Positions 10,490-29,829 are shown, counted from the first letter of the stretch. The stretch: 64,000 nt of DNA from a virus (IMGVR_UViG_3300042398_001385:32001-96000); one strand, 5' to 3'. Notes: a model not told the origin generated them from the sequence alone. A program made the numbers and translations.

Positions 10490-11203
10490 ATGGCAGAAAT
10501 GAAGCCTTATTGGTTTATAGAATCCCCTATAGATTTTGAATATAAGTATTACGTGCTTATGGCATATCTAATGAAGGTTAAAGGAAGCTTTGGTGAAAAT
10601 GGATTTGAAAAAAATTTCAAGCATCTATTGACGATTAAAAAAGATTTAGAGAGCTTTGTTAAAAATACAGAGCTTAGCCAAAAATCCAGAGCTAAAATGA
10701 CCGAAGACGAGAATGATAATTTTTATAATATATTAGATAGAAATTTAGATTCTATAGGAGAGATAGAGGAGATTGCTAAGAATTCTATAAGCGTTATAGA
10801 TAAATTCATAGAGGAGAATAGTAATTTTTACGAGAAATACAATTCCTTAGTAGATGTGGAAAGTTATTGTTCTAAATATAATCTGTGGGACCAGGGATTT
10901 TTAGTTATAAGAAAAAAAGAGGAAAGGACCATGAGAATATTTAATTGGTTTTTTTCTATAGTTAAAATAGCAAACAAAGAAAACGTAGCTTTATTAATGA
11001 CAGAGTTATTGGATCCTCTATGTGAAACTACTAGTGATATTAAAGGAATAAAAAAATTTCTTAAAGGAAACATAAGAGATTTTTCAGATCAGTATGACTG
11101 TATATTAGTAGCAGACATATCCAATGAGATTGATATGGAAATAGGGACGGAGTTAAGTAAGGAAAAATCTATAGATATTATAATGACTCGATTTAAGCAT
11201 TAG
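10490..11203 (+). CDS. hypothetical protein
   Basis: 237-aa ORF with N-terminal WFIESPIDFEYKYYVLMAYL; TATATA element upstream. Confidence 0.7.
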   Translation: MAEMKPYWFIESPIDFEYKYYVLMAYLMKVKGSFGENGFEKNFKHLLTIKKDLESFVKNTELSQKSRAKMTEDENDNFYNILDRNLDSIGEIEEIAKNSISVIDKFIEENSNFYEKYNSLVDVESYCSKYNLWDQGFLVIRKKEERTMRIFNWFFSIVKIANKENVALLMTELLDPLCETTSDIKGIKKFLKGNIRDFSDQYDCILVADISNEIDMEIGTELSKEKSIDIIMTRFKH

Positions 11204-11750
11204 CTTTTAAATCGTCCATCACAGATTTGGTTTCCTCTACTTCTTCATCTGTAAAATCGAATCTATCAAAAGGAAATTTATCTGCCTTAAAAAGATAAAC
11301 TCTTTCTTCTCCAGCTTCATCTTCTGTTACAACTTCTATTTTAGATCCGTGTCTGTTGATATAAAAATCTGCTCCTCTTCCGTTTTTAAGAATCTTGTTT
11401 CTTATAAAAAGAATAGCTCCTCCTGGCATTTTCGTTTCAGGCTCATATTCGCCAGCTTCTATAATTCTTTCTATCTCAGGGATAATCTTAATTATTTCAG
11501 AGAATGTTTTTTTAGCAAGATCATCTAATGATGAAATTTTCATTGTTGATGATATGAATTCGATTATTTCTTTTTTAAGTTCTGGCTTTTCTATAAAAAT
11601 AGATTTTAAGTCATCAACGAATGATTTGCTATTATAGCCATTTTTTGGATCATTGGAAGAATACTTAAATGGTATATTATAAGTTTTATCCATATTTCCG
11701 GCAGCACTGCTTTCATTTACAAATTGGTTAAAATTAAATATCCTTCTCAT
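11193..11750 (-). CDS. putative internal virion protein
   Basis: N-terminus MRRIFNFNQFVNES resembles the T4 capsid-targeting peptide. Confidence 0.6.
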   Translation of the reverse strand: MRRIFNFNQFVNESSAAGNMDKTYNIPFKYSSNDPKNGYNSKSFVDDLKSIFIEKPELKKEIIEFISSTMKISSLDDLAKKTFSEIIKIIPEIERIIEAGEYEPETKMPGGAILFIRNKILKNGRGADFYINRHGSKIEVVTEDEAGEERVYLFKADKFPFDRFDFTDEEVEETKSVMDDLKANA

Positions 11751-12212: not shown

Positions 12213-12944
12213 ATGGTGATCAGAAGTTATTCACAATTTATATCAGAATCTAAATCTAACAGAGGGGGATATGATATTAGCCAATATACAGATGAAATGT
12301 ATATGTTAGAAAGCGAATATTTAAGACTTCAATCAGAGGGTTTAAACGAGGAGGAAATTAACGAAAATATATTTACTTCATTTTTTAGCTCTTTAGGAGG
12401 TGGTTTTACTGACACGTTTAAAGATTATATAATAGATTGGGCAGCTCAAAAATTTGGTATCGATCCTTTCGATGAGAGCGGACAACCAACTTTTTTCTAC
12501 CAAGTTATTAGAAACGTAATAGAGCAGGTACATTTTACAGATCTAGGAAAATATTTCGGGTCTGGATCATGTAAAAATTGGGCTACTGCTATTATAGAAG
12601 GTTTATCTGAAACATTACAAGAAAGAGGAATAGAATATTTATTACCTAGATTAGGTATGAAAATAGACATGACCGAAGGAATGGGAGGAACTATAGCAGC
12701 AGGATTAAGAGAGGCTTTAACAAACGCTATAAATAATACTTCTTTCATGAATAACATAGAGAAGATGATAAGCGATAAAATATGTGGATTTAAACTTGGA
12801 GACGTTTTATCTGGTGGTAATGTTACAACTTCAGATAAACAGAAAATTCAAGGACAGATAGAAGCAGCTGGTGAAAAAAATCCAGATATATATACACAAG
12901 CAATGAGATCTGGCTTATCCAGTGTTCTCCAATTTAATAAATAA
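12213..12944 (+). CDS. putative internal virion protein
   Basis: MVIRSYSQFISES tag; LNE/INE sites followed by the amphipathic segment NIFTSFFSSLGGG. Confidence 0.6.
   Translation: MVIRSYSQFISESKSNRGGYDISQYTDEMYMLESEYLRLQSEGLNEEEINENIFTSFFSSLGGGFTDTFKDYIIDWAAQKFGIDPFDESGQPTFFYQVIRNVIEQVHFTDLGKYFGSGSCKNWATAIIEGLSETLQERGIEYLLPRLGMKIDMTEGMGGTIAAGLREALTNAINNTSFMNNIEKMISDKICGFKLGDVLSGGNVTTSDKQKIQGQIEAAGEKNPDIYTQAMRSGLSSVLQFNK
12885..12892 (+). promoter_or_regulatory. putative internal late promoter GATATATA
   Basis: Exact motif inside the 3' end of 12213-12944, 57 nt upstream of ATG 12950. Confidence 0.45.
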
Positions 12945-19632: not shown

Positions 19633-20223
19633 TTATACTTTTTTTGTTTCCTGTTTAGCTTTTTCTAAAGTAGTTAATGCGTTAGTTATAAACTCTTTAA
19701 CCGCTGTAACTAAAGCAGTATTTGTAATTTCTGTCCCATATTTTTGCGAATAAGCTGACAGTAACTGAGATATCTTAGCAACTCCTTTATTTATTGAATC
19801 GTAAGCCTTTTTAAAATCCTCTGAGCTTTCTGCTATCTTTTTTACCTCTGTAGAAGCATTCATTGTCTGCCATTTAGTAATAATATCTTTAGAAATTATG
19901 TCCAAATTTATATCAGCTTTTTGTGAGTTTAATTTAATAAAATCAAACATCTCTGCTGCATATCTAGCTTTAACAGTTTCGTCAGTTATAGAATTCATAA
20001 AATAATTATACTCATCATATATTAACTGAAATATCTTAACAGCATATTCAGTGGCATATTTTATTTTATATTCTGATGTTCCTGGTTTTAAAAAAGCACC
20101 AGTACCTCCAGTAGATCCTTGATCTATAAGTGTTTCTCCCTCCTCATTTATTCTTGAATATTTCTTAGCAGTTTCTGTAATAGATTCAAAAAGAGGGTTA
20201 TATTCTAATCTTTTATTGTACAT
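19633..20223 (-). CDS. hypothetical late/virion protein
   Basis: YNPLFESITE..INE N-terminus and GSTGGTG; GATATATA upstream. Confidence 0.6.
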   Translation of the reverse strand: MYNKRLEYNPLFESITETAKKYSRINEEGETLIDQGSTGGTGAFLKPGTSEYKIKYATEYAVKIFQLIYDEYNYFMNSITDETVKARYAAEMFDFIKLNSQKADINLDIISKDIITKWQTMNASTEVKKIAESSEDFKKAYDSINKGVAKISQLLSAYSQKYGTEITNTALVTAVKEFITNALTTLEKAKQETKKV

Positions 20224-20240
20224 TTTTTAAGATTTTTATT

Positions 20241-20248
20241 TATATATC
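20241..20248 (-). promoter_or_regulatory. putative late promoter GATATATA
   Basis: Exact motif 17 nt upstream of ATG 20223. Confidence 0.7.
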
Positions 20249-20251
20249 ATA

Positions 20252-20539
20252 TTATTTGATGGATTCCATCTTTTTATATGCTACAGATTTTTTTTGAAAT
20301 TCTGCAACTTTCTTTTGTAGTTCTATTGATTGTTGATTAAGAGACTCACTTTTAGTTAGTGTTCCGTCTTTTTCTCTTTTCTGTAAATTAGCAATAGCAA
20401 GATCTATATCAGATATCCTTTTATCTATATCCATTATTTGTTTTTCTGCATCTGTTTTAGCTTGGAGCTCTTTTGTTTTTTGCTGAGTGTTTTCTTGCTC
20501 TAAAACAAATTCGTGTATTTTAAATATTCGATTCTGCAT
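20252..20539 (-). CDS. small coiled-coil putative virion protein
   Basis: MQNRIFKIHEFVLE tag followed by a heptad coiled coil. Confidence 0.6.
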   Translation of the reverse strand: MQNRIFKIHEFVLEQENTQQKTKELQAKTDAEKQIMDIDKRISDIDLAIANLQKREKDGTLTKSESLNQQSIELQKKVAEFQKKSVAYKKMESIK

Positions 20540-21413
20540 ATCTTCTATTTTTCATTTCCCTTTCAATGGTATTTACTCTGCTTCTTACTCGATCTATATT
20601 TTTTCTTAAATGATATTTTACATTCATTTCCTTTCTATCTAAGGTAGCTAAAGTATCTGATTCCCCTTGTCTTTCTGCTATCTTACGGTCTCTTTTAATA
20701 TTATCTATTGCTCTTGAATAAGTATCCTCCAATTCAAAAAAGAAGTCCCTTATTTGAGTATAATATTTATTAAGATTGTTCTGATCCAGGGATCTAGTTA
20801 ATGCTGAAGCCTCTTTCGGCTGCATGTTTAGAAAATTTAAAACATCCTCGCTCATTTTAGGTGGAATCTCAATTGTAGGCATATAAGAGGGTCTTTCTTT
20901 TATTTCCTCGTAGAAAGAAGCCTTCCTATTAGCATCCCTAACCAAAGCATCAAATTCTGAATTTATTTGATTTAAAAATCCCGAATCTGATATAGATCCT
21001 ATGTTCTTCATTAATTTTTCTTTGGTTTCCACTTCAACTTTAGCAACTTCTGAAGCAAAAAAAGCTTCTAACTTCGGTTCATCGTCTATAATTGATCTAG
21101 CTTCTTTGGTTAGTGCATTTATTTCCTGTCCCTTTAGAGCGGAATAAGTTCTACTTTGTCTTCTTAAATTGGTAACAGTAAATCTATATTCAGGACTATT
21201 ATCTCTATCAAGTCCATTTATTTCTTTTTCTATAGAAATAACATTAGAAACCTCTTCGTTTCTAGCTTCTCTTATTTTTTTGATAATATTTTCTATCTTA
21301 CCTTTTTTTGAGGTAAAAAAGTCCTTAACACCACCAAATAATGAAGATAAAAATCCTTCATCTATCCTATCGAAATCCTCTAGTCTTTGTATGTATTTTT
21401 TATTAAATTCCAT
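20520..21413 (-). CDS. coiled-coil putative virion protein (paralog of 21426-22412)
   Basis: YIQRLEDFDRIDE then GFLSSLFGG; shares motifs with the adjacent gene. Confidence 0.6.
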   Translation of the reverse strand: MEFNKKYIQRLEDFDRIDEGFLSSLFGGVKDFFTSKKGKIENIIKKIREARNEEVSNVISIEKEINGLDRDNSPEYRFTVTNLRRQSRTYSALKGQEINALTKEARSIIDDEPKLEAFFASEVAKVEVETKEKLMKNIGSISDSGFLNQINSEFDALVRDANRKASFYEEIKERPSYMPTIEIPPKMSEDVLNFLNMQPKEASALTRSLDQNNLNKYYTQIRDFFFELEDTYSRAIDNIKRDRKIAERQGESDTLATLDRKEMNVKYHLRKNIDRVRSRVNTIEREMKNRRYAESNI

Positions 21414-21425
21414 ATTAATAATTTT

Positions 21426-22412
21426 TTAAGACTTAACTTTTTCTTTTTCTCCTAATTCTTCAAGATATTTTTCGATCTCATTATATAGATCATAGAGTTT
21501 AGATCTATTTTCTTCACCAAGATCCCCATGAGGATTTTCCTTAGTTATTGTTGAATTATTTTTCATCATTATATTATAGATCTCGGTTTCTAGATCAAAA
21601 ATTGCTTTTCTTCTTGTTAAATATTTAGCCTCAGTGGATTTAATTAAATCGAATCTTTTTCTGAATTCTTGCTCAGGATCATCTTCAACTCTTGGGTCAC
21701 TTCCAGTAGTTGTTGTTCTTTTAAGTTTTTCAACCTCGTATTCAGCTTTTCTTTTTGCTTCTTCTGATTCTTTTTTAAGATCATCTAAATTAACACTAAA
21801 GAAATCTTCTAAATCTTTTGTTCTATTAACACTTCTTGCAGTTATAGCCTTAGTCTTTTCGTATCTGTCACTTCTTGTTTCTTCTACGTCTACTGCTCTT
21901 TGTGCATTAAAATATTTTTTCTTTCTATTACTATCCTTAGTAAGATCCCTTACTCTCTGTTCGAAAGCACTTAATATTTCATTGTGAGTTTTAGTAAGTT
22001 CTTTAAATCTTAAATTTAAAGCATTTCTACCTTGTTGAATATCTCTACTAAGAGATTGATAGTTTGTATTTTCCCTGTCCTTATCTAGAGCTTTTTGGTC
22101 TTGTAGTAAATTATAGAACTCGTCATATATCTGATATTCTTCTCTGTTGTATTTAAGTTCCTGTTCTTTCATTTGAGTAAGTACAGTTTTTAACTTACTA
22201 ACATCACCACCGAAAGCTCCACTTAAAAAATTCATTATAGTATCGCCTAATCCTTCGTTTAGCTCCACTAGCTGACATATTAATTCACCTTCTGATATTT
22301 CACTAAACATCGGAGATTTTTTCAAAATACGAGCAGTTTTATCAATATCCCTATCGTTTTCTAAAAGAACCTGTTTTGCTTTTTGGAATTGACTTGCATT
22401 TTCAAATAACAT
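21426..22412 (-). CDS. coiled-coil putative virion protein
   Basis: LFE/LLE/ISE/LNE sites, then GLGDTIMNFLSGAFGG; GATATATA upstream. Confidence 0.6.
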   Translation of the reverse strand: MLFENASQFQKAKQVLLENDRDIDKTARILKKSPMFSEISEGELICQLVELNEGLGDTIMNFLSGAFGGDVSKLKTVLTQMKEQELKYNREEYQIYDEFYNLLQDQKALDKDRENTNYQSLSRDIQQGRNALNLRFKELTKTHNEILSAFEQRVRDLTKDSNRKKKYFNAQRAVDVEETRSDRYEKTKAITARSVNRTKDLEDFFSVNLDDLKKESEEAKRKAEYEVEKLKRTTTTGSDPRVEDDPEQEFRKRFDLIKSTEAKYLTRRKAIFDLETEIYNIMMKNNSTITKENPHGDLGEENRSKLYDLYNEIEKYLEELGEKEKVKS

Positions 22413-22428
22413 AATTTATCTTTTATTC

Positions 22429-22436
22429 TATATATC
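22429..22436 (-). promoter_or_regulatory. putative late promoter GATATATA
   Basis: Exact motif 16 nt upstream of ATG 22412, just after the capsid-gene terminator. Confidence 0.7.
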
Positions 22437-22454
22437 CAAAAACCTCCCGAAAAT

Positions 22455-22483
22455 AAAAAAGGGTCTCCGTTAAGAGACCCTTT
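22455..22483 (-). terminator. intrinsic terminator of the major capsid gene
   Basis: Minus strand AAAGGGTCTC-TTAACG-GAGACCC-TTTTTT. Confidence 0.85.
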
Positions 22484-22509
22484 CGAGTATGTATCTGTTA
22501 CAGTTACTA

Positions 22510-24294
22510 TTAGATGATAGCAGTAGCAGTTCCAGTGTTAACGTGGAAGCAGAAATACATTGTTTCTGGGTGGTGACCAGCCTCAACTAAAGAGTAACGA
22601 GATTTAACCGCGATTTTAGGAGACATAGTACCCTCAGAGATAGTCTGGATTGACTCAGCCATCATGTAAGGCATGAATTTCATACCTGGCTCATCATCAG
22701 CACCTTTTCTACCAACTAATACTCTAGTGTCACCGAATGACATGTTTTGATCAACATATACAGTCATACCAGCAAGTGAACCTACAGGGTATAATGTACC
22801 GTTGTTTTGAGTAAGTGTGTTAGTAAATGGAGCGAATGTGAACTGACTGATGTCTTGTAAAGCAGACGCGATTTGAGAGTTAGTAACGATGAAGTTAGCA
22901 GGACCTCTACGACCTCTGTTAGCAACTACGTTAGCAGCAGCTAAGATACGAGAGTAAAGTCTTCTTTGAACTGTTGATAAGTTCTCGAAAGTACCTGAAG
23001 CAGGACCAGCAACTGCACCTGGTTTAGAACCACCTGTGATAGCAGTACCTTGTTTACCGATGTAGTTAGGAACTGTATAAGTAGCAGCACCACCAATTAC
23101 TAAGTTTAAGTTAAGGTTTGTGTTCTCTGTTACTAAGAACTGAGAGTGGTTAGACCATCCTAGAGCGTATGCTCTTGATAAGATGTGCTTGTTAATAGCT
23201 TGAGAAACCTCGTTAACAAGTGCGTTCTCGATCATAGAAACTACGTCGATACCGAACTGCTTGTTAAGGTCTTGGATTTGCTCAGTAGTAACAGAAGCAG
23301 CAACTTGGAAAGTACCAGCTTCTACGAACTTAGTGAAAGTAGAAAGACCTAATGACTTGTAATAAGTTGTCTCACCTACTCCTCTTAACATAGGATCGTA
23401 GTTTTTAGTACCGTCTACGTATGGACCTTGCCAATCGTTATCGTTTTCAGGACCAGCTCCAGAGAAACCTTGGATATGATCTTCTAACGTTTTAACTAAT
23501 ACAGCGTTACCAGCAGTAGAAGCAGCTAAAGAACCAACGTTAACTGATGTTAAAGCAGTACCAGTAGTCCATGTAGTTGCATAGATATCAGCAGTACCAG
23601 CAGCAGGAATTACCTGAGCGATAGAGTCGCCGTTACCGATAGCAAGGATTCTGAAAATAGGGAAACCGTCGATACGTGAGTTACCGATGAATACACCGAT
23701 TGCAGCGTTACCACCTGTTGCAAGGTTAACTGAAGAAGAAAGACCAACACCGATTACATAATTATCACCTACTACAAGACCAGTTGCTGGAGAAGCAATA
23801 GCCGTAGGGATTTTAATCATGTCAGGAGTGTTAGCTACATAGTTGCTAGTAGAATCAGCTGAACTACCAGCTAATGAACCACCTGCATATACGTAGTCTA
23901 GGTAAGATAATACTCCAGTAGGACCAGCCATAGGAATAACAGGAACGATGTCAAAACCAACGGTTTTAGCAGCTACCTGAATAGCCAATGGAAGTAATGA
24001 TGGGAATTTATCACCAGAACCAACATATGGACGACCAGCGTCATAAGTGTTGTTGTAGTAGAAACCAGCAGGACCCGCACCAGCTGCACCACCTTGGTAG
24101 TTACCAGCAGGAAGTACGTTACCCATACCGTTTAATACGCCTAGAGAGTTATAAGCTCCGGCAGATTCGTTTAATGAATGGAAGTGGCAATATTTAGATA
24201 ACCACTCTACCTTTGAACGATCCGTCATACCGGTCTTACTCTCGATAATTGGAGACCACGTTTCGTAAATCTCGTTTTCGTTTAAGAGTTGCAT
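22510..24294 (-). CDS. gp23: major capsid protein (T4 gp23-like)
   Basis: W-x-PIIE, DIVPVIPMAGPTG, TEQIQDL..QFGID, E..L.NE....IN, RRGPANFIV, VGSL.GMTVYVD, PYM, PKIAVKSRY; strongly biased codon usage. Confidence 0.95.
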   Translation of the reverse strand: MQLLNENEIYETWSPIIESKTGMTDRSKVEWLSKYCHFHSLNESAGAYNSLGVLNGMGNVLPAGNYQGGAAGAGPAGFYYNNTYDAGRPYVGSGDKFPSLLPLAIQVAAKTVGFDIVPVIPMAGPTGVLSYLDYVYAGGSLAGSSADSTSNYVANTPDMIKIPTAIASPATGLVVGDNYVIGVGLSSSVNLATGGNAAIGVFIGNSRIDGFPIFRILAIGNGDSIAQVIPAAGTADIYATTWTTGTALTSVNVGSLAASTAGNAVLVKTLEDHIQGFSGAGPENDNDWQGPYVDGTKNYDPMLRGVGETTYYKSLGLSTFTKFVEAGTFQVAASVTTEQIQDLNKQFGIDVVSMIENALVNEVSQAINKHILSRAYALGWSNHSQFLVTENTNLNLNLVIGGAATYTVPNYIGKQGTAITGGSKPGAVAGPASGTFENLSTVQRRLYSRILAAANVVANRGRRGPANFIVTNSQIASALQDISQFTFAPFTNTLTQNNGTLYPVGSLAGMTVYVDQNMSFGDTRVLVGRKGADDEPGMKFMPYMMAESIQTISEGTMSPKIAVKSRYSLVEAGHHPETMYFCFHVNTGTATAII

Positions 24295-24303
24295 TTTGTT
24301 AGA

Positions 24304-26391
24304 TTATTTTTTAAATCTTTTTTCTAACTCTGCTGCGATATTCTGCATGTAAGAATTACTTACTCCCGAATTAGCAGGTTTGTTAGTGTTTAGAGATTCG
24401 CTTAGGAATTCAGTAGATTCCGGTTTTACAGAAACTAATCCTCTAGTTCTCCAAAAGTGATTGATCTGATAAGGAGTATCTAATTTGTAGAATTTACTTT
24501 GAGCTACAATTGCACCTCTTTGAGATTCATTTAGACCTTCCCATGTAGGAACTAAATCACCAGGGATCATGTCAAGGAATTTTTCTCCGGAATTAGCTTG
24601 TTCAGCTAAAGCGGACCCCATAATTTGAACTACATCCGTACCCGAATTATAGTTCTGCTCGTTAAGAGCTTTAGCGACCTTTTGTTTTTCGGCCTCGTTC
24701 AAGGATAAAAATCCTTTCTTCGTTCTGTCATCGACAAGCTTTAAGAAAGAATATTTATTTTCGTTTATGATTTCGTCAGTTTTTACGTTACTAACTGATT
24801 CAATTAATTTATCAACTTTTGAAGAAAGATTTGTATAATCTCCAGAGAATCCTGAAGTTCTTCTACCTTCATTAATAGACTCGTTTACGTTCTTTGCAAG
24901 ATTTGTTCTTGTGTTTCCTCCTCTATTAATAGACTCTGCTAAATATTCAGTATAATCGATACCAGATTTAACTTTTTCAGCGATATAATCTGAATAATTA
25001 ATATTGCCATTTAACTTCTCTCCTAAGTAGTCAGAATAAGTAATATTTTGATCTAATTTCTCTCCTAAATAATCGGAGTAAGTAATGTTCTTGTCTAAGT
25101 TCTCAGCAAGATAATCAGAGTAAGAAATATTCTTGTCTAAGTTTTCAGCTAAATATTCAGAATAAGTAATATTCTTGTCTAAGTTTTCAGCTAAATATTC
25201 AGAATAAGTAATATTATTATCTAAGTTTTCTCCAAGATACTCAGAGTAAGAAATATTCTTGTCTAAGTTTTCAGCTAAGTATTCAGAATAAGTGATATTT
25301 CTATCTAGGTTTTCAGCTAAATATTTACTGTAAGCTATATTGTTATCTAGATTCTCTGCAATATATTCAGAGTAAGAAATATTTCCATCAACATGCTCAG
25401 CAAGATATTTAGCATAAGAAATAGACTTGTCTAAATTTTCTGCTAAGTATTTGTTATAAGAAATAGATCCTTCTAAATTTTCAGCTAAATAATCTCCATA
25501 TTTAATAGCTGTTTCTAAATTTTCAGCTAGATACTCAGAGTATTTTTCTAATCTTTGGATTCTTTCCTCTAAACCAGAATCTGAAAAATCTGATGTTGAT
25601 CTAGTAGAAGGTCCTTTAGAAACAGATCTAAGTTCATTTTTTAATGAATCCATTTCCTTTTTAAGGATTAATGAATATTCGTTTAGCTCTTCTGCAGTGA
25701 CAAAGTTATTGTCCATGTTTCTTGAATTATTTATGTTTTCTTTTAAAAGCCTAGAGATTTTCTCCGTATCTTTTATTCTATATATCTGAGTGTTAGAATT
25801 TTTTCTAAGCCCAAAACTTTCATTTATGTTAGTTAATGAAGAAATAATTGAATCTTTTACTGATTCTGATGGAATATGTGATCCTAAGCTTTCATAAACC
25901 CTTTCTAATTGAGCATTTTCGAATCCAGGATCAGCAACTAGATCATATGTAAAAATTTTCTTAATTTCTACTTTTTTATTCTCCTTAACGTTACCTGCTG
26001 CTCTAGAAGAGATAGAAATAGGAATACCTGCATCAATTAAATTTTTAGCTATTTTACCAGCGGGGGTATCTAAAAGTTTTACTTTTATTTTTACGTTTCT
26101 ATTAGATTTATCGTATGAAAGATCCGTAATAACGTGTGATATATTTTTAAGAGAAACGTCGAACTCCTTAGGGTGATCTAATTCACCAACTAATCTATTC
26201 TGATCAATTTTCTTTCTAAGATAATCCAAATGAGGCAAGTATTCGTTTTCCTCATAAATTCTGTGGTTAGAGTTTTCAACTCCAAAAACAGCAGCAATAC
26301 CTTCAAGAAAATATTCTCCTCCTTGCTTTTTAGTGCTAAGGTTATGAGAAGATTTCTCTAATATCAGTACGTAATCTAGGTTATTTTCCAT
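24304..26391 (-). CDS. gp21: prohead protease (T4 gp21-like) fused to a repeat-rich scaffold/core region
   Basis: LEGI, NSNHRIY, GELDHP, SH, LLDTPAGKIAK, ISSRAAG and TYDLVADPGF; C-terminal 15 x 14-aa repeats. Confidence 0.92.
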   Translation of the reverse strand: MENNLDYVLILEKSSHNLSTKKQGGEYFLEGIAAVFGVENSNHRIYEENEYLPHLDYLRKKIDQNRLVGELDHPKEFDVSLKNISHVITDLSYDKSNRNVKIKVKLLDTPAGKIAKNLIDAGIPISISSRAAGNVKENKKVEIKKIFTYDLVADPGFENAQLERVYESLGSHIPSESVKDSIISSLTNINESFGLRKNSNTQIYRIKDTEKISRLLKENINNSRNMDNNFVTAEELNEYSLILKKEMDSLKNELRSVSKGPSTRSTSDFSDSGLEERIQRLEKYSEYLAENLETAIKYGDYLAENLEGSISYNKYLAENLDKSISYAKYLAEHVDGNISYSEYIAENLDNNIAYSKYLAENLDRNITYSEYLAENLDKNISYSEYLGENLDNNITYSEYLAENLDKNITYSEYLAENLDKNISYSDYLAENLDKNITYSDYLGEKLDQNITYSDYLGEKLNGNINYSDYIAEKVKSGIDYTEYLAESINRGGNTRTNLAKNVNESINEGRRTSGFSGDYTNLSSKVDKLIESVSNVKTDEIINENKYSFLKLVDDRTKKGFLSLNEAEKQKVAKALNEQNYNSGTDVVQIMGSALAEQANSGEKFLDMIPGDLVPTWEGLNESQRGAIVAQSKFYKLDTPYQINHFWRTRGLVSVKPESTEFLSESLNTNKPANSGVSNSYMQNIAAELEKRFKK
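24934..25542 (-). repeat. 15 tandem 42-bp (14-aa) repeats, consensus YSEYLAENLDKNI(S/T)
   Basis: Counted in the translation; the span of 609 bp equals 14 x 42 + 21. Confidence 0.95.
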
Positions 26392-26402: not shown

Positions 26403-26410
26403 TATATATC
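26403..26410 (-). promoter_or_regulatory. putative late promoter GATATATA (protease-capsid operon)
   Basis: Exact motif 11 nt upstream of ATG 26391. Confidence 0.75.
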
Positions 26411-26413
26411 TAA

Positions 26414-29014
26414 TTATGCTTCAGATTCTTCTTCTCCTTCAGCTTTAGCTCCAGAGGATGCTGATACAACTGAATCAGTGATTTCTTCCATAGATTCAGA
26501 TAATTTTTCTAAATCCTCTTCAGTTATGTATTTAAGATTCTCTGAAAGCTTAGGTTCGTTAGCATTTAATTTTCCTACTGCTGCAACACAAGCGTCTTTA
26601 GCATTTTCAAATTCTATTGGTGCTCCATTGATAGGATTTCGGGTTTTAAATGATTTAGGGAATGAAGGAATAGTGTCCATATCAGTAACCATATCTTTAA
26701 AGAATCCTCCAGCTCCACCAGAAGTGATAGAAGCTATATCACCTTCTAAGCTTCCGCCTCCAAATGATGAATATTGTCTTTTAACTAAACTCCATACTGA
26801 AACTGCTTTACCGTCTCCTGTATCAGTAAATGTACCTCTACAAAGAATAAGGGTAGAGTATATTGCTAGTAAGTCTTGCGAAGATACGGTACCACCTAAG
26901 CTGTTGTATAAACCTCTAGCCATTGCTCTAACTGCTATTTCTTCTATGAATCCATTAAATACTAATACAGCGACCGTTTTTCTATCGCTTCCTGCCCATT
27001 TTGCTATAGTGGTTCCTCCGATTATTCCACCTCCCCATAAAATACTAGCACCTACTGCTCCACTACCTAAAGTTGCTGCTGTAGCCATACCTGTACCTAC
27101 TGCACCTGCTGTAAATGTTGTTGTTGCAGCACCTGCTCCTATCGTTGCTGCTGCTGCTGCAGATCCTACTCCCCAAGTAAGTACTCCTGCTCCTATAATA
27201 ATACCAGCAACTAATGCTCCTTTAGCTACATCGCCAAACCATTCTGCCCAGCTTTCGTCGTATAATAATCCATATGTTCCATCGTCTACTGGTTTTAAAC
27301 CTTTCCATTTTATTTCTTCTCCAGTTGCGCCAGTTTCTCCAGTTGTACCAGTTTCTCCAGTTGCACCACCAGTTGCACCAACACAATCAAGAACTTTTCC
27401 TTGTTCTAGAGATTTCTTAACGCAATTATCAACGATTTTTTTCTTTCCTATATTAGGATCTGGAACTACTGCCTTAGCTCCGGGAGTTTCTTCAGATTTA
27501 CCCCTTAATCTATCAAATACGTTTTCTTCGTCTAATTTTCTAAAGCTATATGATTCTTCTATAACTGAATAGAAATCCTCGAAAGATAAAATAGGAGATC
27601 CTTTTATCTCTTCTCTTTCTTGGATCTTTTCGTCGATTTCCATTTCTTCGAAATCGTCAAAATAATATCTACCGTAACTTCCTTCAAAAACTATAGATGT
27701 AGTATCTATATCTGTAGAATTAAGAGCCATTAATTGATCGTACATATCCTGAGTTAAATCAGAAGTTAAAGCTTGACCTGATTGACCTGATAAATATCCC
27801 CATACTATATTTACTACTGCTGCAGTACCTTTACCGTATATTTTGTCTTGACCTCCAAATTTTGCTAAATATGTATTTGCTGAAGGAATTAATTCCATTA
27901 ATTTTTTCTGAAGATCCCCTATTTGTGTACATTTGTTATTAAGTTTAACAGGGAATGTACAATCTTTAACTGGTAGAGGTGTAACTTTCTTTTTCTTCTT
28001 AACAACTTCTTCTTCACCTGTTGCAACATCTACACATTTTCCTAATGATTTGTCGTAAACCTGTCCTGGAGGACAAACAGGATCTGCAGTTACTGGTTGT
28101 TCTATATTAGTAAGAGATGCTTTTAATCTTTCGTATTCTTTTTTCTGTCTAATAATTTCATTTACTAGATCGTCTTGCTTTCTCTTATATTCCCCAGCTT
28201 TAAATTCTCCTGAAGGAGTAACAATTTTTCCTCCTAAAGCACCTGCTCTGTCTACCATTTGTAGTTCTTGTGCTTTTTTATAAAGAGAATCTGCAATTTC
28301 TTTGTATCTTTTTATATCTGAATTATCCTTCAAATTTGGTAAGTATTTGTCTCTGTCTACCATACCAACAAAAGAATTTGCTGCATCTAACGATTCTTTA
28401 GATTTGTTAAAAGCCTGTCCTCTAAATTCTCCATCTGTAGCATCAGCTTCGTCTCCAGTTTTTCTTTTTTCAGATAAACCTTCTTTAACTACCAATCCCT
28501 TTTTAATTACTTCTCCGAAAAGTTTAGGATTAGTTTTTCTCATCTGATTTTCTCTGTCTTTTAAATCGTTAGAGAAGTTTTCAAGAACTTTAGCTATAGT
28601 ATCGTTTTTAATACTCTTATACATTTTAGGATCTCCTAGAACAGCTTCTACTTCACCGCTTAGTATACTAGTAATCATTTTTAGGTTTGAATCGTAAGCT
28701 TGTTTTTGACCTGGGTCCAATACTGCTAATGATTCTATAAAAGAAATAAGATACTGTCTAAAAGATCCAAAATTATCTGTTGACAGAATTTTATTTTTTA
28801 TAGATTCAAATCCTCTAACAGTTTTAGCATCCTCCATTTTGGAAGATAGTATTAAACTAAAAAGAGTATTTAAAGCAGTAACAACAGCTGTCATTGTGTC
28901 GATAGCTTTTGTTTTTCTTGATGTTCTTTCTCCTTCGTTAAGTGAGCTTCTTAAACTCTCGAAAACTGGGTTAATTCCGCCGTAGATGTCTTTTTTCATA
29001 TTATTATTATTCAT
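26414..29014 (-). CDS. large putative virion/ejection protein with a PG-binding-like domain and a Gly/Ala-rich hydrophobic region
   Basis: INPVFESLRSSLNE, CPPGQVYDKSLGKC, IGDLQKKL...QDKIYGKGTAAV, ILSFEDF..IEES, GATG linker and a long GxxxG hydrophobic stretch. Confidence 0.6.
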   Translation of the reverse strand: MNNNNMKKDIYGGINPVFESLRSSLNEGERTSRKTKAIDTMTAVVTALNTLFSLILSSKMEDAKTVRGFESIKNKILSTDNFGSFRQYLISFIESLAVLDPGQKQAYDSNLKMITSILSGEVEAVLGDPKMYKSIKNDTIAKVLENFSNDLKDRENQMRKTNPKLFGEVIKKGLVVKEGLSEKRKTGDEADATDGEFRGQAFNKSKESLDAANSFVGMVDRDKYLPNLKDNSDIKRYKEIADSLYKKAQELQMVDRAGALGGKIVTPSGEFKAGEYKRKQDDLVNEIIRQKKEYERLKASLTNIEQPVTADPVCPPGQVYDKSLGKCVDVATGEEEVVKKKKKVTPLPVKDCTFPVKLNNKCTQIGDLQKKLMELIPSANTYLAKFGGQDKIYGKGTAAVVNIVWGYLSGQSGQALTSDLTQDMYDQLMALNSTDIDTTSIVFEGSYGRYYFDDFEEMEIDEKIQEREEIKGSPILSFEDFYSVIEESYSFRKLDEENVFDRLRGKSEETPGAKAVVPDPNIGKKKIVDNCVKKSLEQGKVLDCVGATGGATGETGTTGETGATGEEIKWKGLKPVDDGTYGLLYDESWAEWFGDVAKGALVAGIIIGAGVLTWGVGSAAAAATIGAGAATTTFTAGAVGTGMATAATLGSGAVGASILWGGGIIGGTTIAKWAGSDRKTVAVLVFNGFIEEIAVRAMARGLYNSLGGTVSSQDLLAIYSTLILCRGTFTDTGDGKAVSVWSLVKRQYSSFGGGSLEGDIASITSGGAGGFFKDMVTDMDTIPSFPKSFKTRNPINGAPIEFENAKDACVAAVGKLNANEPKLSENLKYITEEDLEKLSESMEEITDSVVSASSGAKAEGEEESEA

Positions 29015-29801
29015 TGTATATATTTGAATATGCTTTAGAGATTAACTCTATTATCTTTTCTATATATCCTTCATTTCTTAATTTTTTAAATGCTAGATTT
29101 TCAACGGAAAATTCCCCTTCCCTCTCCAATCCTTCCTTTCGCATTTTCATTATTTTTTTCTTTATTTCTAAAGAATGATTATAGAGTTCAACCTCAGTAG
29201 CGGTTGAAAAATCGGATGCTGCCATTAGATTTTCCATCTTTAGTATATCTGAAACGATACCTTGAAATTTTAAATCTACGTCTTTGTAGTCAATCTCTGG
29301 TGGATTATACTTAGGAACTCTGATCCATTCGTTATTTAATAAAGAATATAAACCAGATGCAGTATGTGGCTCGTTGATGCCCTGTACGTATAATTCTACG
29401 TCGAATCCTCTTATTTTTATTTTGTGTCTAAGATTCCATATAAATCTTACACCATCAACTGCTTTTTTAACAAGGGTAAAGTTGTCATCAATCTCATTGA
29501 AGTCTATTAGAACATGTACGTCTAAATCAGATTTGTCTGTCCAGTTATAATTGGCTAAGGAACCAGTTAGTTGGATATCTCTTATTTCTGGATCGAATCC
29601 TAGTGATGAATAAAAATCGTTAGCTAACTCAATAAGTTTTTTTCTTAGTTTCTGGTCAAATTCATAATTTTCTGCTCCAGCACTTTCGGGAAGATCCTCA
29701 CTAATTTTTTTCCAGAATGACGGATTTAATTCTTTTTTATAAAAATCACTCCTTTCCTCGTTTTCTAGAACCCAAGAATAAAAATTTAAAATGTTTTTCA
29801 A
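29007..29801 (-). CDS. Pol-beta-superfamily nucleotidyltransferase
   Basis: LTGSLANYNW...SDLDVHV (GS + DxD) and VELYVQ; TTG start; N-terminal capsid-targeting-like tag. Confidence 0.8.
   Translation of the reverse strand: MKNILNFYSWVLENEERSDFYKKELNPSFWKKISEDLPESAGAENYEFDQKLRKKLIELANDFYSSLGFDPEIRDIQLTGSLANYNWTDKSDLDVHVLIDFNEIDDNFTLVKKAVDGVRFIWNLRHKIKIRGFDVELYVQGINEPHTASGLYSLLNNEWIRVPKYNPPEIDYKDVDLKFQGIVSDILKMENLMAASDFSTATEVELYNHSLEIKKKIMKMRKEGLEREGEFSVENLAFKKLRNEGYIEKIIELISKAYSNIYNE
29061..29068 (-). promoter_or_regulatory. putative internal late promoter GATATATA
   Basis: Exact motif in the 3' end of the NTase gene, 46 nt upstream of ATG 29014. Confidence 0.5.
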
Positions 29802-29821: not shown

Positions 29822-29829
29822 TATATATC
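29822..29829 (-). promoter_or_regulatory. putative late promoter GATATATA
   Basis: Exact motif 20 nt upstream of the NTase start at 29801. Confidence 0.7.

Follow-up and report, generated by a model that had tools for sequence, protein, structure and literature searches.

Can one gene supply a phage prohead with both its protease and its scaffold, and what would a long array of short repeats do in such a protein? The question is raised by an open reading frame (ORF) of 695 amino acids (aa) in IMGVR_UViG_3300042398_001385:32001-96000, a 64,000-nucleotide (nt) stretch (the window, to which all positions refer) of a 153-kb contig with 32% G+C from a giant uncultured lake phage. The encoded protein combines an N-terminal protease domain of the T4 gp21 type, 15 tandem repeats of 14 residues and a helical C-terminal domain (Table 1). 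We consider it likely that the gene encodes a T4-type serine prohead protease fused to the main scaffold, that it gives rise to two products, and that the fusion digests itself once the shell has closed. Cleavage, packaging and the nested transcript start are predictions drawn from sequence.

The N-terminal domain is a T4-type prohead protease

In profile searches, Pfam Peptidase_S77 (PF03420) matched aa 24-140 with 38.6 bits (cut-off 27), and phrog_207 (head maturation protease) matched aa 11-201 with E 1.1e-38. Alignment of the ORF with 59 relatives revealed that H73, S128, S129 and R130 are invariant (60 of 60 sequences). H73 lies within ELDHP and S128 within ISSRAAG, and the counterparts of these motifs in the T4 gp21 record are ELNHP and VSSRG; we take H73 and S128 to be the catalytic His and Ser of an S77 protease. 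Thus, the two profile matches, together with the invariant residues, identify the fusion as a protease.

The N-terminus also has a T4 parallel. Removal of the gp21 N-terminus is thought to activate the T4 enzyme, according to excerpts of two papers (PMC9026906, PMC9958956). T4 gp21 cleaves itself at L-I-E9, and the counterpart here is I10-L11-E12, a predicted cleavage site whose Glu is kept in at least 90% of the 60 aligned relatives. The first 12 residues are likely to be autocleaved.

A 14-residue repeat with a cut site in every unit

A regular expression detected 15 units, starting at aa 282, 296 and so on to 478, with a spacing of exactly 14 residues and no phase slip. Tandem Repeats Finder reported a period of 42 nt (10.8 copies, 76% matches, 25031-25485), as well as periods of 84 and 126 nt. 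The original prediction, made by a model from the DNA alone, had described 15 units of 14 residues that open with I(S/T); the count, length and phase were right, but the first unit opens with EK. Every one of the 15 units has Y3, Y6, [LI]7, [AG]8, E9 and [LVI]11. Across 1,079 units from 118 diverse family members, 920 of which were found with a matrix made from this protein and therefore bias the count, position 7 is L, I or V in 96%, position 9 is Glu in 86% and position 3 is aromatic (Y/H/F) in 95%. Positions 7 and 9 thus rank among the best-kept columns of the unit, beside the aromatic position 3.

Where units encode identical residues, 42% of the codons differ synonymously, which argues that the array is old and held by selection on the protein. 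Since the array is also kept in relatives at 35-60% identity, it is not an effect of chance or assembly. One adjacent pair (aa 394-421) marks a recent duplication, as these units are identical across all 42 nt. The hydrophobicity of the array has its strongest harmonic at 3.5 residues, matching two heptads per unit, and AlphaFold2 predicted long helices through the array at aa 272-389, 397-445 and 463-489, with a predicted local distance difference test (pLDDT) of 37-62. In our reading of the unit, two Asn sit on the hydrophobic side of a helix predicted at this same confidence.

We took the cut rule to be cleavage after Glu in [LI]-x-E and digested the protein in silico at every such site. 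The fusion contains 29 sites, of which 15 fall in the repeats, one per unit, and none within aa 48-191. This amounts to 4.17 sites per 100 aa, where the median for the contig is 1.38; a higher density is seen in just six proteins, of 53-116 aa. Digestion left aa 48-191 as a single protease core of 144 aa and reduced aa 192-695 to pieces of 12-43 aa, 14 of which are exact 14-mers such as NLDKNITYSEYLAE. These results uphold one of the original claims, that each unit contains an (L/I)-x-E cut site (we found [LI]-[AG]-E in 15 of 15), and lend support to another, that the protein would be a self-digesting protease-scaffold. They support the view that the fusion is a protease-scaffold built to be digested, and the 14-mer pattern would be a clear signature in proteomics.

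Relation to the T4 core

The fusion shares with T4 gp21 and gp22 the protease family (S77), the catalytic motifs and the [LI]-x-E rule. In T4 the gene order is 21-22-23 and the scaffold is digested to small peptides; here, the fusion gene likewise directly precedes a gp23-like capsid gene. What T4 encodes in two genes (gp21, gp22) is here encoded in one. As stated in the original prediction, no separate gp22 gene lies between protease and capsid: the gap is 9 nt (24295-24303) and holds no ORF. The scaffold part has the functional traits of T4 gp22, as it stands before the capsid gene, is helical by prediction and is dense in protease sites. T4 gp22 has no array, but a single LAKEWLAEN stretch that resembles YSEYLAEN of the unit, a likeness noticed post hoc.

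The C-terminal domain was predicted with a pLDDT of 83. A search of PDB folds with it returned nothing at E <= 0.001. Among predicted structures, it matched a 657-aa "Peptidase U9, T4 prohead protease" and a 389-aa protein of virus NIOZ-UU157 (E ~4e-7). Weaker matches were to the "prohead core scaffold" of Tenacibaculum phage pT24 (E 0.24, probability 0.87) and to Tenacibaculum phage PTm1 (E 0.74, probability 0.33).

Several results count against reading the C-terminal two-thirds as the main scaffold. Pfam T4_CASP (PF25623) and phrog_237 gave no match to aa 226-695 even at E <= 1, with T4 gp22 as a control matching them at 6.8e-89 and 1.6e-92, respectively. Comparison of the family by hhalign yielded a probability of 0.8% against T4 gp22 and 0.5% against the scaffold of phage 121Q. 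The rod is predicted at low confidence only. Finally, four Lys/Glu-rich helical proteins encoded at 19633-22412 could be further core, scaffold or internal proteins.

A suggested scaffold-only product

The sequence GATATATA occurs 33 times on the contig. Because 25 copies lie within 100 nt upstream of a gene start on the same strand, mostly at 12-30 nt, we regard it as a strong promoter-like box. Copies in the window include those at 26403-26410, 22429-22436, 20241-20248 and 29822-29829, all on the minus strand. The T4 late promoter, TATAAATA, differs from this box and precedes only 8 of 173 genes here. One further copy of GATATATA lies inside the fusion ORF and agrees over 15 nt with the box that precedes gene 21426..22412. 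Downstream of this copy, M226 is the first ATG encountered in any reading frame. Conservation of a Met at this site, together with the box, suggests a scaffold-only product of 470 residues, and this probable nested gene was missed by the original prediction.

The Met and the box could instead be by-products of constraints on the protein, with no nested gene, an explanation that we think rather unlikely. It suits the box well: the box encodes Q-I-Y-R-I, overlapping I-Y codons that are conserved in the family consensus, and the 70 nt that separate it from the ATG are unusually many compared to the 12-30 nt of most boxes. Both points speak against an internal start. It suits the Met poorly: in 57 of the 60 aligned sequences (chance 17%), a Met is found 2-12 residues upstream of F-V-T-x-E, the conserved motif at the start of the scaffold part, within an Asn/Lys-rich linker that is of low complexity and otherwise unconserved. 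Among the 695 residues, Met is conserved to this degree at only three places, which are the start, the M226 site and a structural M-P motif. Upstream of the internal ATG we also considered a T4-late-like ATAAATA as the promoter but dropped it, as just 3 of 46 distinct relatives keep it; this too lowers the case for internal initiation.

There are precedents for nested genes of this kind. In lambda (C/Nu3) and in herpesviruses (UL26/UL26.5), an internal start in a protease-scaffold gene gives an in-frame, scaffold-only product. The protease families of these systems differ from the S77 family found here, and our shorter product is a prediction only. Annotators would do best to treat the locus as encoding two products, with the putative scaffold-only protein nested within the fusion.

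In the model that we prefer, the scaffold part would comprise a helical linker, a rod of 15 two-heptad units (~210 residues, ~31 nm if fully helical) and the C-terminal helical domain, which most likely grips the shell or the core. Two products would probably be made: the full fusion, which would take a few protease copies into the core, and an abundant scaffold-only protein that starts at M226 behind the internal promoter-like box. Upon closure of the shell, the protease would remove its own 12-residue N-terminus and then cleave each unit once, behind the Glu of [LI]-x-E. This would break the rod into acidic 14-residue peptides that, to judge from T4, would be small enough to exit the prohead. 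The unit shares Ar-x-x-Ar-[ILV]-x-E (Ar, aromatic) with the N-terminal tags of at least six proteins of the contig and with the T4 capsid-targeting sequence, and such tags may pack against the rod as extra units, which is a conjecture.

Repeat units and targeting peptides

T4 IPII and IPIII begin with MKTYQEFIAE (T4 record). According to a review, residues 4 and 7 of this capsid-targeting sequence (CTS) direct targeting, while residues 8 and 10 direct processing (PMC9026906). These four positions are the ones kept in the repeat unit, so that unit and CTS share the pattern aromatic-x-x-aromatic-[ILV]-x-E; any packaging by the unit is hypothetical. The T4 CTS is a single N-terminal propeptide on cargo, whereas here the pattern is internal, occurs 15 times and belongs to the scaffold itself. 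That scaffold units carry the four key residues of the targeting peptide bears on a general question, since how T4-type targeting peptides find the core is called mysterious in the available part of a 2023 review (PMC9958956).

In six-frame ORFs of at least 60 aa on the contig, we counted 36 instances of [YFW]-x-x-[YFW]-[ILVM]-x-E: 15 in the repeats, 6 at true N-termini (start codon 5-7 codons upstream) and 15 elsewhere. For the N-terminal matches, ~0.1 would be expected, as calculated from the internal rate with the repeats removed. A looser N-terminal pattern was present in 21 of 167 genes, against ~5.7 expected. Thus, six cargo-like genes have the CTS pattern at the N-terminus, while the repeat unit has its residues at an internal position. 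RSYSQFISE and FNFNQFVNE, both proposed as tags in the original prediction, are indeed found at true N-termini. Another tagged gene (29007-29801) may encode an enzyme that is packaged into the head; its nucleotidyltransferase-like Pfam matches were weak and below threshold. A tblastn search of phage records with another tagged protein, of 243 aa, gave no match.

We compared units and tags by scoring matrices. With a 7-column matrix made from 18 tags, curated from the 21 looser-pattern N-termini, 11 of the 15 units scored among the best 0.13-0.18% when set against 43,274 other internal windows. Since all units derive from one ancestor and 14 registers are possible, this corresponds to ~p 0.02 for the likeness between units and tags. 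Full-profile comparisons pointed the other way: tag matrices placed no scaffold window in the top 50, and a 9-column matrix built from the repeats placed no N-terminal tag in the top 20. The originally noted resemblance of the unit core to the T4 targeting peptide and to the local tags thus holds for the four-position pattern and fails for the wider profile. The likeness is real but thin, and it could equally reflect the extended recognition site of one protease.

This last possibility leads to an alternative that we find quite plausible, with a chance only somewhat short of even. The repeats would be no more than a self-associating, self-destructing coiled-coil spacer; the tags would bind the C-terminal domain, the inner face of the capsid or the protease; and the shared pattern would be one protease's extended site, with two aromatics before [ILV]-x-E. 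The likeness is indeed confined to residues beside the cut site, the matrix comparisons failed in both directions, and the registers differ, as a hydrophobic residue lies three positions before the first aromatic in tags and two positions before it in units. Moreover, in only 6 of the 18 curated tags does a cut site directly follow the aromatic pair. Two results do not fit the alternative. In T4, the two aromatic positions affect targeting and not processing, according to the review (PMC9026906), and the high ranks of 11 of the 15 units were obtained with a matrix made from tags alone.

A bolder extension of the fusion model holds that the rod is a polymer of the targeting module. Each unit would be a built-in targeting-plus-cleavage peptide, cargo tags would mimic the unit and pack against the array, and one protease rule would free the cargo and dissolve the rod together. 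We judge this docking scheme distinctly unlikely. The recruitment of tagged cargo by the repeats, as originally proposed, is a hypothesis with weak support, given a likeness limited to Ar-x-x-Ar-[ILV]-x-E and the negative profile comparisons. In a complex prediction that paired residues 1-40 of the RSYSQFISE protein with units 5-12 (aa 338-449, alignment supplied), the score was 0.02, which is uninformative either way. We also read 61 annotated N-termini of coding sequences in the last 50 kb of PTm1 for tags that co-vary with the PTm1 repeat and found no consistent tag family. If true, docking would offer a structural explanation, the first of its kind, of the way in which T4-type targeting peptides locate the core and would explain why phages with many tagged proteins have 10-16 units.

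A separate set of tag-like N-termini lies at ~120-147 kb of the contig (window coordinates 88000-115000, mostly past the window end), where a cluster of small genes encodes products that start with MK-x-I-x-x-F-E-x-F. Many of these have no cut site right after the motif, and there may be cleaved and uncleaved classes of tag.

Repeat number and head size

The original prediction also proposed that repeat number could act as a ruler for head size or cargo load. We take this to mean a radial ruler and consider the idea very improbable. Among six complete or near-complete genomes of 462, 597, 635, 636, 642 and 735 kb, the arrays span 11, 10, 13, 12, 12 and 16 units, respectively. This upward trend has a Spearman rho of 0.75 (p 0.08), or of 0.90 (p 0.015) when only matrix-detected units are counted. 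By our own estimate, the ~2 nm of helix in one unit is of the right order for the expected differences in radius, and an excerpt on T4 reports that gp22 mutations alter head length (PMC9546572). Thus, the suggested check of repeat count against genome size showed the expected direction, but at p 0.08 and in related genomes (n = 6).

Counts in closer relatives argue against a strict ruler. Array spans of 12, 13, 14, 15 and 16 units were counted in 8, 13, 72, 26 and 1, respectively, of the best 120 relatives (75-99% identity), so unit number is already polymorphic at this distance, and one unit pair in the present array is a fresh duplication. Among IMG/VR loci at 37-100% identity, between 8 and 16 units were detected per full-length gene, in most cases 12-15. 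Because capsid T-numbers are quantised, single-unit steps cannot each change head size. The contig here is 153 kb and the longest contigs of relatives are 347-361 kb, neither of which fixes the genome size of the lineage. With 12-16 units among close relatives and a trend in six genomes only, support for the ruler is weak; a loose length requirement for the array is possible.

Distribution and prior annotation

A search with the scaffold part alone (aa 230-695) retrieved 716 clusters at 50% identity (E <= 1e-3); protease and C-terminal domain occur together in 112 of the 150 matches listed. The closest relatives of the contig's capsid and protease genes are in uncultured huge phages (462-735 kb), Lak phages and Tenacibaculum jumbo phages. 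LR756500-504 and LR745206, from huge phages of 462-735 kb, have the identical layout followed by the capsid gene. As this very large family includes the largest known phages, its design would be the principal one for scaffolds in a major group of huge phages. Some shorter, Met-initiated database proteins raised the possibility of split, stand-alone scaffold genes; as these begin in the linker or at the protease end, they look like truncated calls and were set aside.

The label "prohead core scaffolding protein and protease" is attached to ORF-300 of Tenacibaculum phage PTm1, which lies just before the capsid gene, and Chen et al. 2022 (PMC9723584) use it for freshwater Bacteroidota phages. The fusion itself is therefore already known by annotation, and the present gene falls into a large class of T4-type protease-scaffold fusions that had been annotated before. 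The PTm1 protease part is homologous to the protease here (hhalign E 7.7e-33). Its central repeats differ, with a W/Y/F-rich unit of ~16 residues and L-S-E sites by eye; a design of aromatic repeat plus cut site may thus recur with different units. Neither the PTm1 record nor the accessible part of Chen et al. 2022 (PMC9723584) mentions repeats, per-unit cut sites or tags, and searches of the open-access literature and bioRxiv found no paper on a tandem 14-residue scaffold array or on its likeness to targeting peptides. Three elements did not turn up in print: the cut site in each unit, the digest into 14-mers and the putative nested start.

Coordinates and neighboring genes

Table 1. Features of the protease-scaffold locus and tagged genes, in window coordinates
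Feature	Position	Strand	Evidence
Protease-scaffold fusion, whole ORF, 695 aa	24304..26391	-	ORF call; Pfam and phrog matches
Likely autocleaved propeptide, N-terminal 12 residues ending I10-L11-E12	26356..26391	-	E12 conservation; T4 gp21 parallel
S77 (T4 gp21-type) prohead protease domain, aa 11-201	25789..26361	-	Profile matches; alignment; AlphaFold2 pLDDT ~90
Invariant H73 of protease domain	26173-26175	-	Alignment of 60 sequences
Invariant S128 of protease domain	26008-26010	-	Alignment of 60 sequences
GATATATA promoter-like box inside the fusion ORF, 70 nt before internal ATG	25779..25786	-	Box scan of contig
In-frame internal ATG (M226), candidate start of 470-aa scaffold-only product (24304..25716)	25714..25716	-	Met conservation
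15 tandem 14-aa (42-nt) units, aa 282-491, each with [LI]-[AG]-E	24919..25548	-	Regular expression; Tandem Repeats Finder; unit alignment
Two adjacent units (aa 394-421) identical in all 42 nt	25129..25212	-	Unit nucleotide comparison
Conserved helical C-terminal domain, aa 520-695; F646 and W647 invariant	24307..24834	-	Alignment; predicted structure
gp23-like major capsid protein gene, 9 nt downstream of fusion gene	22510..24294	-	Pfam Gp23 E 5.1e-40
Gene with N-terminal tag MVIRSYSQFISE (RSYSQFISE)	12213..12944	+	True N-terminus
Gene with N-terminal tag MRRIFNFNQFVNE (FNFNQFVNE)	11193..11750	-	True N-terminus
Gene with N-terminal tag MKNILNFYSWVLE, TTG start, phrog_36119	29007..29801	-	Tag scan; profile matches

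Upstream of the fusion gene, 26414-29014 (minus strand) encodes an 866-aa protein that matched no Pfam or phrog family. Its features include a hydrophobic block rich in Gly/Ala, a short repeat of GETG type (periods 9 and 18 nt, 27317-27368) and, at residue 475, ILSFEDFYSV, which ranks second among internal matches to the N-terminal tag matrix. The four Lys/Glu-rich, apparently helical proteins that follow the capsid gene on the minus strand are 328, 297, 95 and 196 aa long, and several have L-x-E near the N-terminus. A family scan of the 328-, 297- and 196-aa proteins gave no significant match.

Four metatranscriptome runs, each from a different study, contain assembled contigs that cover the capsid gene and the fusion gene's 3′ part (window 22400-25200). 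One contig of 1,802 nt spans both genes, and one further piece lies in the protease part. As these are assembled contigs from libraries that possibly contain DNA, transcript starts are not visible in them, and gaps over the 5′ part and the repeats are uninterpretable. Fourteen DNA runs hold at least half of the sampled words; their labels are mostly lake water or freshwater, with five labeled "fungus metagenome" and one "metagenome".

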